Positions 14,099-23,873 are shown, counted from the stretch's first letter. The stretch is DNA of 25,738 nucleotides from a virus (IMGVR_UViG_2795385890_000001), one strand, 5' to 3'. Translations and numbers: made by a program. The notes: generated by a model from the letters alone, not told the origin.

Positions 14099-14239
14099 TC
14101 ATGCGGCATCGGCTTCGAGTTCTGCTGCGCGCCGCCTGCTGCGGTGCGCTACTAGGTCTGTAGGCTCGGTGTCGATGCAGGTCAACGGGTTTCGAACTAC
14201 TGACCAGAAGGTTAGGGGTTCGAATCCCTTCGGGCGCAC
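14099..14239 (-). pseudogene. Severed C-terminal tail of an integration-dependent phage repressor (VRPKGFEPLTFWSVVRNPLTCIDTEPTDLVAHRSRRRAAELEADAA*) ending in an ssrA-like tag
   Basis: 46-codon open frame running antisense through the att core to TGA at 14101-14099, ending ADAA; lies directly upstream of an arm-less integrase. Confidence 0.72.
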
Positions 14240-14241
14240 CA
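14205..14241 (+). repeat. att core copy 1 (prophage attR / satellite attL): 3' end of tRNA-Arg including CCA
   Basis: CAGAAGGTTAGGGGTTCGAATCCCTTCGGGCGCAC(CA): T-arm GGTTCGAATCC, acceptor strand and ACCA; 35 bp identical to 23839-23873; no 5' tRNA half upstream. Confidence 0.92.
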
Positions 14242-14308
14242 TCTATCAGTGCAAATACGCGTTACGGAGTGCGTGACACGCCCGGAATCTGATACTTTCC
14301 CTCCACTT

Positions 14309-15472
14309 TTAGCCGCCACTTTCAGCGAACTGCTCCAAAGCCGCTCGGACATCGGGGCCTCGGGTCTGGCGCTCTAAGTAATGCGCCTCGGTGGTGGCCA
14401 ACTTGGAATGGGAGAGCTGCTGCTGCGCCTTATCAGGGCCGTGAGCATCACGGACAACGGTGGCGACCGTGCGTCTGAACGAGTGCGGCGTGACCCAGCT
14501 CAGTTCATCCGGCAGAGCTGCACGCAGAGCCCGACGCATGTTGGCTAGGGACATCCAGCCGCCCTGACGATTGGCGAACACTGGGCCTTCCATACCGGAC
14601 TCTCCGACAAGCTCCGTGAGGGTCTCAACACCAAACTTGGGTAGAACAACGGTGTGCGGGGGAGCATGGTGCTTGCGGTGGTCCTGCCGGTGCAGTGGCT
14701 TACCCACGATGCGCCCGTGGTCGATCAACGTCCCGGTAATCGTCAGGGTAGGTGGGTCCGCCAACAGGTCAACATCAGACCACCTCGTAGCTAGTACTTC
14801 GCTGGGTCGGCAACCTGTCGCCACCAACACGTCAATGAATGCGGCGAGAAGTCGGCCAGGACGCGGCCCGGAACCTTTCCGAGTCGAGTACGCCTGGACG
14901 GCAGCCCGGATCTGCCGGAACTCAGCTGCTGTAGCCGCGCGAGCTGGCTTACGCGTCGTTTTGACCGGCTTCGCCTCGCGGATCGGGTTCACCGGTAGGA
15001 CATCGAATCTAACGGCCATCGAGAACATTCCCGACAGCACCGTGCGCAGCCGCTTGGCCTGAGTCGTTGCCCCCATCCCCTGTAGATAGTTGTGCGCCGA
15101 TTGGGTGCGTAACTCCGTGACCCTTAGGGAGCCCAACTGGGCGGCGCCATGGGTTTTCCATACCGCCCGATACTGGTCTACCGTCTGCTGTAGAACGCCG
15201 TCCTCGGCTGCCTTTGCTTCGATCCACAGATCGAACAAGTCAGTGAGGGCGGTTTTTTCTGTCACCAGTTGCCCGGAGAGCGGCGCGCGTCGGGCGTTCA
15301 AGTGCCGCTGGAGCGCGCGCCGCGCATCCTCGGCAGATTTCTCGCTGGACCGCTCTACTCGTCGCCGCTTGCCATCAGAGTCACGCACGTAGGTAGAAGC
15401 GAAAAACATTCGACCACTTACCCGTTCGGTGATCTTGCCGTGCTCCCCCGGAGCGAGCCGCTGCCTAGGCAT
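14309..15472 (-). CDS. int: Satellite tyrosine integrase with an N-terminal arm-binding region
   Basis: GCRPSE, HSFRR, LSH and HY motifs; basic N-terminal beta domain 'YVRDSDGKRRRVERS'; adjacent to the att core. Confidence 0.93.
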   Translation of the reverse strand: MPRQRLAPGEHGKITERVSGRMFFASTYVRDSDGKRRRVERSSEKSAEDARRALQRHLNARRAPLSGQLVTEKTALTDLFDLWIEAKAAEDGVLQQTVDQYRAVWKTHGAAQLGSLRVTELRTQSAHNYLQGMGATTQAKRLRTVLSGMFSMAVRFDVLPVNPIREAKPVKTTRKPARAATAAEFRQIRAAVQAYSTRKGSGPRPGRLLAAFIDVLVATGCRPSEVLATRWSDVDLLADPPTLTITGTLIDHGRIVGKPLHRQDHRKHHAPPHTVVLPKFGVETLTELVGESGMEGPVFANRQGGWMSLANMRRALRAALPDELSWVTPHSFRRTVATVVRDAHGPDKAQQQLSHSKLATTEAHYLERQTRGPDVRAALEQFAESGG

Positions 15473-16040
15473 CCTCGTTACCCTCGATTTGTTGCCACAA
15501 TTCGCGAATCATTCTGTCGTACATTTCGATTTGATCGCGGTCACGGTCAAGTTCGGCTCGCGCCGTCACGCGGGCGCGGGCATCTTCCAATTCCGCCAGG
15601 CGTCGCCATTGGCGAAGCTGATCTGTGCGCCAAGCAAATCCGAAATCGCCGTCGAACGCACTCGCTAGCTCTTGCGACCACCCGTTTGCCGAAAACCACT
15701 GCGCTGCATCGAATTCCGGAACTTCTCGTTCAGGTAGAAATTCCACCGAATCGGAATACGGGCCGGGGTACATCAGCGTTACTGGGGACGTATCGAGTGC
15801 GGCAGCGAGTATTACTAGCTCAGCGGTCGTGACATACCTACGTCGCCCATTCTCCAAATCGGAAATCACCGAACGGGATACTTCGTGGCCGAGTTCCTTG
15901 GTCCGAGCCGCAAGCCACTGCGCTGACCTCTTTCCGCGAAGCCGGTAAACCTCGCGCGCCAATCTATGCGCTTCACGTTCCGCCCAGCTGTCGGGCGGCC
16001 GTTCCGTCCAACTCGGCCTTTTCGGCCCTGATTGCGTCAT
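15465..16040 (-). CDS. XRE-family HTH repressor of the satellite
   Basis: 'SAQWLAARTKELGHEVSRSVISDLENGRRRYVTTAELVILAAALD' XRE HTH; overlaps the int start by 8 bp; divergent from xis. Confidence 0.87.
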   Translation of the reverse strand: MTQSGPKRPSWTERPPDSWAEREAHRLAREVYRLRGKRSAQWLAARTKELGHEVSRSVISDLENGRRRYVTTAELVILAAALDTSPVTLMYPGPYSDSVEFLPEREVPEFDAAQWFSANGWSQELASAFDGDFGFAWRTDQLRQWRRLAELEDARARVTARAELDRDRDQIEMYDRMIRELWQQIEGNEDA

Positions 16041-21825: not shown

Positions 21826-21827
21826 TT

Positions 21828-23102
21828 GTGGCCAAGGTTGGTGATATCCGGCATTGGAAAGCCGAGACGTTGGAGAAGCTGTTCGATACCGCCGCAGCAC
21901 GAGCGGCCAGCCTGCATCGCCTCGGGGAGGGTATGGAACAGGTCGCTAATGATCTGTCCACGTGGGGCGGTGTCACCGCGGGGGCGTGGAAAGACAGCGC
22001 GGGCAAGACGCGTGTAGATCTGGGCGATAAGGCTGATGCCGCCGAGAAGGTCGCTAAAGCCGTCAAACCCGCTATCGATGACGTACGGGAGGTCACCAAC
22101 AAACTGGGCATGCTCGATCAAGACGCTCAAGCAATCGGCGCCACGATCACCGACGACGGCAAAGTCGTCGCCACGACCAAGGTCAAAGACACTGACAAGC
22201 ACCTGCAAGACGACCAAATCGCCCGCCTGCAACAACAAGTCACCACCCTCGAACAACGCGCCACCCAAGTTGAGCAGGAAATCGCAGCCGCTCTGCGCGC
22301 CGATGTCACCGACGCACCAGCACCTACACCACAAGCCCCGCCTGTCGCGCTCAATGCCTCCGAGCCCGTAGGCGGCGCAGACGGTAATCCGCCATATCCC
22401 AACGGTGCCAAGCCCACGATGATCGATGGCGCGAAAACCATTCCCATGGCGGACAATCCGCCAGGCTACGACCAGAACACCGGCCCGGGACCAGCACGTG
22501 ATCAAGCCTGGAAAGACTACCTATCCGGCAAGAATGCCGACGGCACACAGCGCGCGGCAGGTCAACCGCCGCTGGCGCTCCCGAAGCCAGAAGCTGTTAG
22601 CGACAAGGCTTTACGATCGATCGGCGCCGCTGGCCGCTCACAGGGAGTTTCCTACGCTTGGGGCGGCAACACCGACCCCAACGGGCCATCACGTGGACAT
22701 GGGGAAAAGGGCACCTCAGCGGATACCTACGAGGATTGGAACCGGATCGGGTTCGACTGCGGCGGGCTTGTGCGGTACTCAGTGCAACAAGGGGCCGGTT
22801 TCGATCCGTTCGTGCCACGCGGAGACATCCCAGGGACCGACCGCCTCGATATAAACCCCATCTTCGACCACGGTCAGCCTCAAGCTGTGCCGTCCAAGCA
22901 GATCGACAACTTTGCACAGCCCGGCGATATCCTCGTATTCCGCGAAGGCGGAACGCCGTTCACTGGTGGAGGTACCCCACACACCGGGCTCTACGTCGGT
23001 AACGGCTTCATGCTTAACGCACCCGGCTCAGGCATGGCGGTAAGGCTTGATGACGTAACGGAACGCCGGGACAGCGCCGATGTTCTCAGGCTCAAGCCAT
23101 GA
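21828..23102 (+). CDS. ESX effector: WXG100-like N-terminus fused to an NlpC/P60 (RipA-like) peptidoglycan endopeptidase
   Basis: N-terminal 'STWGGVTAGAW'; C-terminal 'YAWGG...GFDCGGL...PGDILVF...HTGLYVGNGFMLNAP' (Cys 22758, His 22980); no Sec signal peptide. Confidence 0.88.
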   Translation: MAKVGDIRHWKAETLEKLFDTAAARAASLHRLGEGMEQVANDLSTWGGVTAGAWKDSAGKTRVDLGDKADAAEKVAKAVKPAIDDVREVTNKLGMLDQDAQAIGATITDDGKVVATTKVKDTDKHLQDDQIARLQQQVTTLEQRATQVEQEIAAALRADVTDAPAPTPQAPPVALNASEPVGGADGNPPYPNGAKPTMIDGAKTIPMADNPPGYDQNTGPGPARDQAWKDYLSGKNADGTQRAAGQPPLALPKPEAVSDKALRSIGAAGRSQGVSYAWGGNTDPNGPSRGHGEKGTSADTYEDWNRIGFDCGGLVRYSVQQGAGFDPFVPRGDIPGTDRLDINPIFDHGQPQAVPSKQIDNFAQPGDILVFREGGTPFTGGGTPHTGLYVGNGFMLNAPGSGMAVRLDDVTERRDSADVLRLKP

Positions 23103-23680
23103 CCACCCGCACCCGGCTCGCCTGCCTGTCGTTAACCCTTGCGGTGCTGACGGGATGTACGAGTCCACCGCCTGCGCCCTCGGAGATTCTGCAGTCCCCA
23201 GTCGCCAGCACGTCAACAAATGTTCCCGATACCAACGGGGTAATTCCCCGGTTCGCCAACGACATCTGGCCCGCAGTGGTGGCTTGCAATGGTGCCTGTG
23301 ATCAGGGCGGCGCCCGGTACGCCAAGTTTATGAAGATCGTGGTGCCCGATCTCGAGGCAGACCAATATGGCCGTCTGCGTGACGCGGTACACGAACTCGG
23401 AACAGTTCAGAAAGCTGACGAATCGCAGGGCAGGATTTACAGAGACGACGATCTGCACCTGTCCGATACGGCCCTGGCCGCGCTGAGTCCGCCTTCAGCG
23501 GTCCTGCGCGTGTGCTACACCTACACCGCTGATACTCGGCGGACGCTCAAAGATCCCCCCAACCCAAAACCCTTTGCCTCCGAGGCCACTGTGGAGCTCC
23601 GCAAAACCGATAACTGGTACCTGTACTCGATCACGAACGATCATGTGGTGCCGGGGTGCCCAACATCATCGAAAGCTTGA
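23099..23680 (+). CDS. Lipoprotein, candidate immunity protein
   Basis: Lipobox 'LTG-C' after a signal peptide; ATGA overlap with the effector stop; several Cys. Confidence 0.82.
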   Translation: MTTRTRLACLSLTLAVLTGCTSPPPAPSEILQSPVASTSTNVPDTNGVIPRFANDIWPAVVACNGACDQGGARYAKFMKIVVPDLEADQYGRLRDAVHELGTVQKADESQGRIYRDDDLHLSDTALAALSPPSAVLRVCYTYTADTRRTLKDPPNPKPFASEATVELRKTDNWYLYSITNDHVVPGCPTSSKA

Positions 23681-23838
23681 CAAAGGAGATATGACTCCCG
23701 TGTCGCCACTTTCCTGATACAAACGCAGCTGAACACTAGCGTACGAGTACGAACACAGCAGTATGAAACCGATGTAAAGCAATGCGCCCCAATGGCTCTA
23801 ACGTATGCGAGTGAACGCAGGCGAACGCTTGAATATGT

Positions 23839-23873
23839 CAGAAGGTTAGGGGTTCGAATCCCTTCGGGCGCAC
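23839..23873 (+). repeat. att core copy 2 (satellite attR)
   Basis: 35-bp exact repeat of 14205-14239; host-type genes follow. Confidence 0.92.

Follow-up and report, generated by a model that had tools for sequence, protein, structure and literature searches.

A candidate cos-type phage satellite integrated at tRNA-Arg(ACG) in Mycobacteroides abscessus

The integrated element and its genes

The window analysed here is the whole 25,738-nucleotide stretch of DNA from the virus IMGVR_UViG_2795385890_000001, and all coordinates count from its first letter. It contains an integrated element delimited by exact 35-bp direct repeats that start 9634 bp apart (Table 1); the unit bounded by these attachment (att) cores measures 9,634 bp, and its interior spans positions 14240–23838. 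The element is probably a satellite of Mycobacteroides abscessus that uses the cohesive-end (cos) packaging of ~40-kb MabB-like phages. The two repeats had been described in a first-pass annotation of the sequence, and a repeat search, a mismatch scan, and shuffling confirmed them. When up to three mismatches were tolerated, a 23-nt part of the att repeat was found in only two places in the window, and none was expected from 100 shuffles.

The att repeat is the 3′ end of tRNA-Arg(ACG), comprising the T-arm and the 3′ half of the acceptor. ARAGORN detected no intact tRNA in the window. In copies of the element that stand alone, the left repeat completes tRNA-Arg(ACG), which lies directly downstream of tRNA-Ser (6650–6862 in L004). 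The empty attB site is present in raw reads of sequencing run X24, which omit the element: from position 23839 they continue without interruption into the 5′ part of tRNA-Arg. As is expected of a satellite, the element is thus a discrete integrated unit with its own integrase and att sites and a known empty site. Logan contigs cannot display a circle junction across the 35-bp core, and those of 9.4–9.7 kb are no proof of circles, because assembly with k=31 breaks at the core.

The integrase and repressor genes of the element point leftwards, and the replication genes rightwards, followed by cargo. This arrangement, together with the lack of structural genes, had been noted in the first-pass annotation and agrees with Pfam and PHROG scans of all open reading frames (ORFs), which detected no capsid, portal, terminase, tail, or lysis families. 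The sole "tail" match is the NlpC/P60 domain of the toxin. The integrase and a master repressor oriented away from the rightward operon are features of PICIs (phage-inducible chromosomal islands) of the SaPI type, as recognised by SatelliteFinder, and the element was initially assigned a PICI-type layout. The layout holds, but the scans matched neither terS, ppi, cpm, or another gene for packaging or capsid redirection, nor a primase or helicase domain of the kind found in the PICI primase-replicase (pri-rep). There is also no capsid family match that would represent the major capsid gene beside the integrase, by which Abad et al. recognise capsid-forming PICIs. None of the P4 core genes alpha, sid, psu, delta, and epsilon was found by Pfam or PHROGs. 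An actinomycete integrative and conjugative element was considered and rejected, since no ORF contains an FtsK/SpoIIIE-type Tra domain.

Table 1. Features of the integrated element, with positions in the window
Feature	Position	Strand	Remarks
Left att core	14205..14239	+	Serves as the element's attL and the MabK prophage's attR; matches the prophiGD43A-5 att core
Tyrosine integrase, 387 aa	14309..15472	-	PF00589 E 2.5e-11; phrog_1 E 1.9e-47; MAB_0221c by position
Xre/HTH_3 repressor, 191 aa	15465..16040	-	PF01381 E 9e-6; divergent from the early operon; MAB_0222c by position
Divergent control region	16041..16167		Near-palindromic repeats; candidate operators
Early genes, 55, 97, and 165 aa	16168..17128	+	Called in all copies
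Replication initiator, 264 aa	17380..18174	+	Lambda O-like, winged helix-turn-helix; phrog_26991 E 2.6e-28; HTH_36
Candidate origin	17664..17777	+	Overlapping repeats with 33-bp spacing (repeat family D3), inside the initiator gene
Four small genes, 68, 107, 120, and 99 aa	18174..19351	+	Conserved in all relatives; dN/dS 0.10–0.43
Conserved all-helical protein, 248 aa	19363..20109	+	Signature gene of the family, directly upstream of cos
cos-like site	20092..20244	+	153-bp non-coding block right after the 248-aa gene; core 20110–20160
Variable slot	20332..21128	-	Gene pair encoding 138 (or 189) and 69 aa; L038, L039, and L047 have unrelated genes here
ESX-type polymorphic toxin cassette	21517..23680	+	102-aa WXG100-like protein, 424-aa NlpC/P60 toxin, and 193-aa candidate immunity protein
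Right att core (attR)	23839..23873	+	Exact repeat of the left core

The control region between the repressor and the early genes contains inverted repeats at 16033–16049/16123–16139 and 16065–16074/16146–16155, which are candidate operators. A promoter and terminator scan of the element gave results at chance level. The ratio of non-synonymous to synonymous substitution rates (dN/dS) is 0.08–0.35 for the 97- and 165-residue early genes. The 165-residue protein has no Pfam, PHROG, or PADLOC match and no tblastn match in the phage collection. The replication genes had been described as led by an excisionase. This is weakly supported: the first rightward gene, encoding 55 residues, has no family match in the window copy, but its counterpart in the relative L047 matches HTH_17 (E 8e-6). 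A protein atlas lookup returned unnamed clusters only.

The initiator (Rep) also matches the replication-initiation PHROGs 270, 391, 1032, and 3171 (E 6e-9 to 1e-7). Among phages, Rep homologues are found only in MabB phages, WST1, and IdentityCrisis, with 29–45% identity, and they occur in all the MabB records matched. A locus search seeded with Rep gave one remote match in genome contigs and none in viral contigs. The origin repeats of the window are shared by the relatives L047 and L050; in L038 and L039, whose Rep alleles have diverged, repeats of a different kind, 34 bp in length, occupy the corresponding part of the gene. The element is therefore predicted to possess a replication module of its own, as satellites do, in which an O-like initiator acts with repeats that co-vary with the Rep allele. 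The sole difference of the window element from its common form (L004, L006, L007) is a T/C change at 17721, inside a candidate origin repeat.

The small genes that follow Rep encode proteins with weak family resemblances. The 107-residue protein is weakly WhiB-like (a sub-threshold Pfam match), the 120-residue protein is weakly HTH_17/MerR-like (HTH_17 E 1.1e-3, below the cut-off), and there is a phrog_66 match at E 4e-4 among the four. From its sequence, the 120-residue protein is a candidate excisionase or activator; PICIs have an AlpA-type protein in this role.

The cargo region begins after a gap of 222 bp that separates the 248-residue protein gene from the leftward gene pair of the variable slot. 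The proteins of this slot had no PADLOC match and no Pfam family apart from a weak resemblance of the 138-residue protein to DUF5675 (E 0.049). The toxin cassette is recognisable by the NlpC/P60 domain (E 2.9e-10) and by a WXG100 match over the whole profile (E 1.3e-3), and its DNA is 80.5% identical to genes of prophi91-3 annotated as polymorphic toxin and WXG motif protein. The 193-residue protein is a candidate immunity protein, judging by its position. A PADLOC scan of the element identified no known defence family. In L048, next to a family member at tRNA-Ser, the segment 14810–16266 contains an additional DUF6932 gene (PADLOC candidate PDC-M63A, E 4.7e-10) and a gene for a 295-residue protein; neither gene occurs in L047 or L049, and the pair may represent a defence insertion at the element's right end.

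The cos-like block and the family of elements that share it

Outside the att core, the only strong DNA similarity of the element to the 50,697 phage records searched is in the intergenic cos-like block. Window positions 20091–20248 (158 bp) match an unannotated gap in the ~40-kb prophages prophiGD16-1, prophi89-1, GD11-2, GD08-2, GD42-2, GD34-2, T50-1, prophi62-1, and GD43A-2, which belong to cluster MabB (PMC8092301). The match stops at the last base of the virion records phiGD89-1 (40450), phiGD34-2 (40005), and P3MA (41151). In the alignment, the junction of the virion ends corresponds to positions 20143/20144, so that the element spans the joined right and left ends of the virion genome. 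The gap in the MabB prophages is located between the gene that follows the HNH endonuclease and two small genes that precede the terminase and portal. A site after the HNH gene and before the terminase is the usual place of cos in packaging modules of the HNH type.

The 153-bp block is 73–78% identical to MabB-type phages and 57% identical to the more divergent L059 and L072. Its 51-bp core differs from that of prophiGD16-1 by one base (98% identity) and is 82–92% identical to the other aligned phage contigs. Downstream of the core, the element and the MabB-type phages share a T-rich run and the motif GGTGAAACC. Contigs that contain the 20-nt core are MabB-like in all 19 of the 19 cases from IMG/VR and in both of the two from metagenomes, with the gene order HNH, g21, cos, g22, g23, terL. 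In the element family, the block is always flanked by the genes for the 99- and 248-residue proteins and by cargo. The cos signal thus occurs in two fixed contexts, one in phages and one in elements. The homology to MabB cos thus provides, at the level of sequence, the packaging signal matched to a helper that is characteristic of satellites. In L008, L012, and L014, a 1-bp deletion in the C/G palindrome that ends the 248-residue protein gene (corresponding to 20092–20104) extends the ORF to 291 residues.

Homologues of the 248-residue protein are absent from the 50,697 phage records, and none of 60 family members has a PHROG match. A profile search of 1.84 billion representative proteins retrieved 141 clusters of this family, nearly all with lengths of 245–285 residues. 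The AlphaFold2 model calculated from 60 sequences is all-helical with a predicted local distance difference test (pLDDT) score of 91.5; with only nine sequences, the score was 38.7. Searches of the model by Foldseek against the PDB and BFVD and by VIA-align against 48,161 chains gave helical-bundle noise only, without a match to a solved or viral structure. In AFDB, the model matches uncharacterised actinobacterial proteins, several of which are named DUF222. At the sequence level, neither DUF222 nor HNH nor a fused longer form of the protein was found. The link to DUF222 comes from the names of the AFDB entries and is a lead only.

Three distant relatives of the 248-residue protein were examined in their genomic surroundings. 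In L077, the relative is part of a 9613-bp contig with an integrase, an HTH_17 protein, and a D5-type primase-helicase (D5_N/DUF5906). In L075 (1–7635), it belongs to a small element with an integrase, and the gene directly after it encodes an HNH protein 50% identical to that of MabB phages and resembling the HNH genes at phage genome ends. In L079, the relative is located beside a different integrase. The protein family thus seems to be linked with small integrative elements and with neighbours related to packaging.

Relatives of the whole element were reached through homologues of Rep and of the 248-residue protein. L038 measures 9701 bp between tRNA-Arg cores, and L039 is a contig of 9416 bp. 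L047–L051 are located at tRNA-Ser(CGA), and L047 is bounded by a 27-bp repeat with copies 9540 bp apart. All relatives have the same gene order from the integrase to the gene for the 247–250-residue protein, and the cos core follows that gene within ~20 bp in every relative read. Three integrase types are present, of 387 residues (tRNA-Arg), 373 residues (tRNA-Ser), and 383 residues; two of them are ~25% identical to that of the window, and the tRNA sites of the 387- and 373-residue types are identified. The repressor alleles of the relatives are 27–43% identical and Rep is 62–88% identical, with the repeats inside its gene changing with the allele. The toxins vary as well, with 424, 461, 628, or 661 residues, and the slot after cos differs. 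L046 is a recombinant between family members, because it is a tRNA-Arg element that holds the 250-residue allele of another lineage. For core genes that could be aligned and computed, dN/dS is 0.07–0.44 at synonymous divergence (dS) of 0.09–1.0, and every core gene that could be tested is under purifying selection. The lengths of the family members are limited to 9416–9701 bp, and four copies amount to 37.7–38.8 kb, compared with 37.7–41.2 kb for MabB genomes. The narrow range in spite of module swapping points to a length constraint.

These comparisons bear on two alternative explanations. The element may be what remains of a MabB-like prophage, defective and immobile after the loss of its structural and lysis genes by deletion, and the host may keep it for the toxin cassette. 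The integrase, repressor, early genes, Rep, cos, and att-proximal toxin cassette would then have been retained by descent. Rep and cos are indeed two features shared with MabB phages, M. abscessus prophages have toxin cassettes next to att, and a single internal deletion could yield the layout of the element. Near-identical copies occur across hundreds of assemblies, and 87% of the "defective prophages" of Abad et al. carry toxin systems of this kind (PMC10654092). However, besides cos and 173 bp of Rep, the element has no DNA similarity to any MabB phage, and no other protein of the element matches prophiGD16-1. The flanks of cos differ, with HNH-g21 and g22-g23-terL in the phages and the 99- and 248-residue protein genes and cargo in the element family. 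The 248-residue family has no members in PHROGs or in the phage collection. The reduced design is retained although Rep has diverged to 62% identity, the integrase module is of three types, and the elements occupy two identified tRNA sites; independent decay would not produce this, together with purifying selection and narrow lengths, across diverged lineages. Abad et al. recognise defective prophages by extended DNA similarity to phages; in the element, phage-matching DNA is confined to the att core and the toxin cassette, to 158 bp at cos and 173 bp within Rep, and to a portion of the integrase gene. We therefore consider a prophage remnant unlikely.

Alternatively, the element could be a self-replicating integrative island in which the cos-like block is a decoy that titrates or misdirects the MabB terminase as a defence against phages, while the island spreads by other means or not at all. 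It has its own integrase, repressor, and initiator with an origin, the variable slot beside cos is reminiscent of defence hotspots in other mobile elements, and one relative is adjoined by the PADLOC candidate PDC-M63A. Nevertheless, the Pfam and PHROG scans identified no FtsK/Tra, relaxase, or other transfer gene, and no known defence family was matched within the element. A decoy would also not explain why the full ~150-bp cos architecture is kept, which is more than a binding site, and why the length stays near one quarter of the helper genome. This explanation is improbable, and it shades into that of a satellite, because a decoy cut by the terminase would be packaged anyway.

The adjacent prophage, distribution, and expression

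The first 14204 positions of the window are the right arm of a prophage similar to prophiGD43A-5, which covers 93% of them at 92.9% identity. The arm contains tail genes, lysins A and B, a holin, a toxin cassette, and a tyrosine integrase. prophiGD43A-5 belongs to cluster MabK and uses attB-1 (PMC9934374); its GenBank record describes integration-dependent immunity, with attP inside the repressor gene. Because the left flank of the element is the right arm of a MabK prophage, the left core combines the attR of the prophage with the attL of the element, as had been stated in the first-pass annotation.

The first-pass annotation had further proposed that the element shares tRNA-Arg with the adjacent prophage and probably parasitises it. 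The island and the shared core stand, and the parasitism is not supported. The two have the 35-bp tRNA-Arg core in common and are neighbours in the window as well as in L005 and L006, as would be expected of a satellite stacked beside its partner. Beyond the core, however, the element has no DNA similarity to the MabK prophage, its proteins have no match in the 14.2-kb arm present in the window, the integrases are unrelated, and there are no MabK records among the phage cos matches. The element is also not restricted to the company of this prophage: in most of the genomes read, an identical copy stands alone at the tRNA, between the tRNA and host genes, without a prophage. Elsewhere it is accompanied by at least three different MabK-like variants (window, L005, L006). 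Since the element is mostly alone or beside differing MabK-like variants, the stacking reflects a shared attB and not a partnership. This suggests that later, independent insertions of prophages at the rebuilt tRNA account for the MabK-like neighbours, and we regard a MabK helper as highly improbable.

Several observations concern the prophage or its order relative to the element. In one contig from the RNA library of run X15, the right core (23839) and the host flank are connected with a MabK-like attR flank, which differs from that of the window and resembles that of L005. In the X15 strain, a MabK-like prophage may lie on the right side of the element, so that the order of the two is inverted; this single contig across a repeat is a lead only. 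Downstream of the gene for the 728-residue polymorphic toxin of the MabK prophage (7688–9874), two paralogous genes for 218-residue proteins are located on the minus strand at 6336–6992 and 7035–7691, with 74–78% DNA identity (repeat families D1 and D2). The prophage of the window seems to have an extra, possibly orphan immunity gene, because the record of prophiGD43A-5 annotates only one. An exact 20-bp tandem duplication at 12587–12626 lies just upstream of the integrase region of the prophage.

Identical integrase and Rep sequences are indexed in ~485 assembly blocks, the integrase counted on its own in ~490, and a single-nucleotide polymorphism separates the window copy from the common form. 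In L013, the integrase occupies positions 233622–234785 of the contig. Ripoll 2009 (Table S1) lists a "prophage-like element" of strain ATCC 19977 that starts at 233621, with the integrase MAB_0221c, the DNA-binding protein MAB_0222c, and adjoining Arg and Ser tRNAs. By position, we take the present element to be this "prophage-like element", MAB_0221c–0242. Because the positions agree, the published results on MAB_0222c apply to the element. MAB_0222c was scored as essential in transposon sequencing, as one of very few such accessory genes (PMC8262987), and in a stressed mutant, MAB_0222c–0233 ranked with SOS genes among the loci of strongest induction (PMC13748394). Essentiality and induction fit a repressor that restrains a harmful or replicative programme.

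Contigs from the RNA libraries X15 and X16 cover the integrase, the repressor, the segment 18956/19888–21150, and the toxin cassette. The operon at 16.1–18.7 kb is represented only by scraps. This lends weak support to a repressed replication operon and expressed cargo. The highest RNA k-mer depth, 92–135, is at 19888–21122, comprising the end of the 248-residue protein gene, cos, and the leftward genes, compared with 0–9 in the early operon; the signal could come from a leftward transcript that reads through cos.

Proposed satellite cycle and comparison with known systems

Based on its genes, its cos-like block, and its relatives, a cycle of the element as a satellite of MabB-like phages can be proposed. 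Derepression by stress, the SOS response, or a helper product would lead to excision, and the excised element may replicate by a theta or rolling-circle mechanism from its internal origin. The terminase and HNH nuclease of the helper would then recognise and cut the satellite cos, and the cut DNA would be packaged into particles built by the helper. The packaged form may be tetramers (4 × 9.4–9.7 = 37.7–38.8 kb) or monomers in small capsids. The 248-residue protein encoded beside cos is a candidate hijacking factor, and the toxin cassette and variable slot may be the cargo that pays the host.

Several points weigh against this interpretation. No gene for determining capsid size or redirecting the terminase was recognised in the element. 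Rep and cos are both related to those of MabB phages, and therefore an origin by deletion from a MabB-like phage is possible. The near-identical copies in the ~485 assembly blocks fit clonal inheritance as well as mobility. The RNA contigs, which carry no strand information and give only rough depth, are a poor measure of expression. What the sequences show directly are the limits of the element, its genes, the homology of its cos, the conservation of the family, purifying selection, and the empty site; induction, excision, replication, cutting at cos, packaging, and transfer are inferred. We nevertheless rank a satellite of MabB-like phages first, followed by a defective prophage, a decoy island, and a satellite of the MabK prophage.

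A broader interpretation can be offered only tentatively. The 141 clusters of the 248-residue family might mark an extensive, unrecognised class of ~9.6-kb actinobacterial satellites that steal HNH/cos packaging. The protein might be a DUF222-like adaptor that brings the helper HNH–terminase complex to the satellite cos, and the length of the elements might be adjusted to let four copies occupy a single helper head. Capsid remodelling would not be needed in such a system, because the four copies would fill the head. The type strain of M. abscessus might then harbour an active satellite, moving ESX toxins and interfering with phages of the MabB type.

Phage therapy is in use against M. abscessus, a drug-refractory pathogen whose prophages and islands shape its susceptibility to phages. 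If the element, which occurs in hundreds of clinical assemblies as well as in the type strain ATCC 19977, is a satellite, it would constitute a route by which ESX-secreted toxin cassettes move between strains, and interference with MabB-type phages would be likely. It would also be an easy experimental system, with an essential repressor and a stress-induced operon. The candidate helpers phiGD89-1, phiGD34-2, and P3MA are deposited as virion genome records, which implies their isolation as particles. Current satellite finders use capsid or primase genes, and the 248-residue signature gene may reveal elements of this type across Actinobacteria.

In the literature searched, the att repeats, origin, cos block, and family of the ATCC 19977 element are undescribed, its cos site and link to MabB phages are not mentioned, and a capsid-less satellite that mimics a helper cos is undescribed for Mycobacteriaceae. 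Ripoll 2009 annotated the "prophage-like element" as 14.4 kb long, apparently including host genes to its right, with no function proposed. De Sousa et al. mention distinct putative satellites in M. abscessus, which may include the present locus. Candidate mycobacterial PICIs (Abad et al. 2023, PMC10654092), the GD01 element (PMC10465359), and EPIPs (PMC12822802) are likewise small islands of Mycobacteriaceae that carry an integrase and are often located at tRNA genes, and 22% of the candidate mycobacterial PICIs carry ESX-type toxin systems (PMC10654092). However, the defining gene of those elements encodes a major capsid protein, and terminase or scaffold genes are often present too, whereas the present family has none of these and relies on what appears to be a borrowed cos. 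EPIPs have a serine integrase and terS, capsid, and tape-measure genes (PMC12822802), which the element family lacks. The present elements thus differ from these islands in their gene content.

P4, the satellite of P2 in Enterobacteria, is a small integrated replicon with its own integrase and replication genes, a helper-like cos through which the helper terminase packages it, and a variable cargo slot, but no virion genes. P4 and the element are both integrated replicons on a ~10–12-kb scale, with a cos homologous to that of a helper and a slot for cargo. The element differs from P4 in its lambda O-like initiator, actinobacterial host, and ESX-type toxin cargo, in that no P4 core gene was detected, and in its length of about one quarter of the helper genome rather than one third. 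SaPIbov5 (PMC5052747), a Staphylococcus aureus pathogenicity island (SaPI), similarly contains a helper cos instead of terS and a master repressor divergent from the replication operon; unlike the element, it encodes a homologue of the capsid protein (Ccm) for small capsids and a primase/replicase, neither of which was found here. PICMIs (phage-inducible chromosomal minimalist islands) of Vibrionaceae (PMC10803314) resemble the element in being very small and without a capsid-remodelling gene. They are packaged as concatemers with a total length equal to that of the helper genome, which provides a model for the present element, as 4 × 9.6 kb is close to 40 kb. PICMIs measure ~6 kb, are located next to fis, have virulent helpers, and are packaged with headful-like random ends (PMC10803314), whereas the element has a defined cos, integrates at a tRNA gene, and has temperate candidate helpers; concatemers are a proposal in its case. 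Because their core genes are absent, the element lies outside the families of P4, cos-type SaPIs, and PICMIs. By analogy, it would work most like P4 or cos-type SaPIs, and also like PICMIs if tetramers are packaged.

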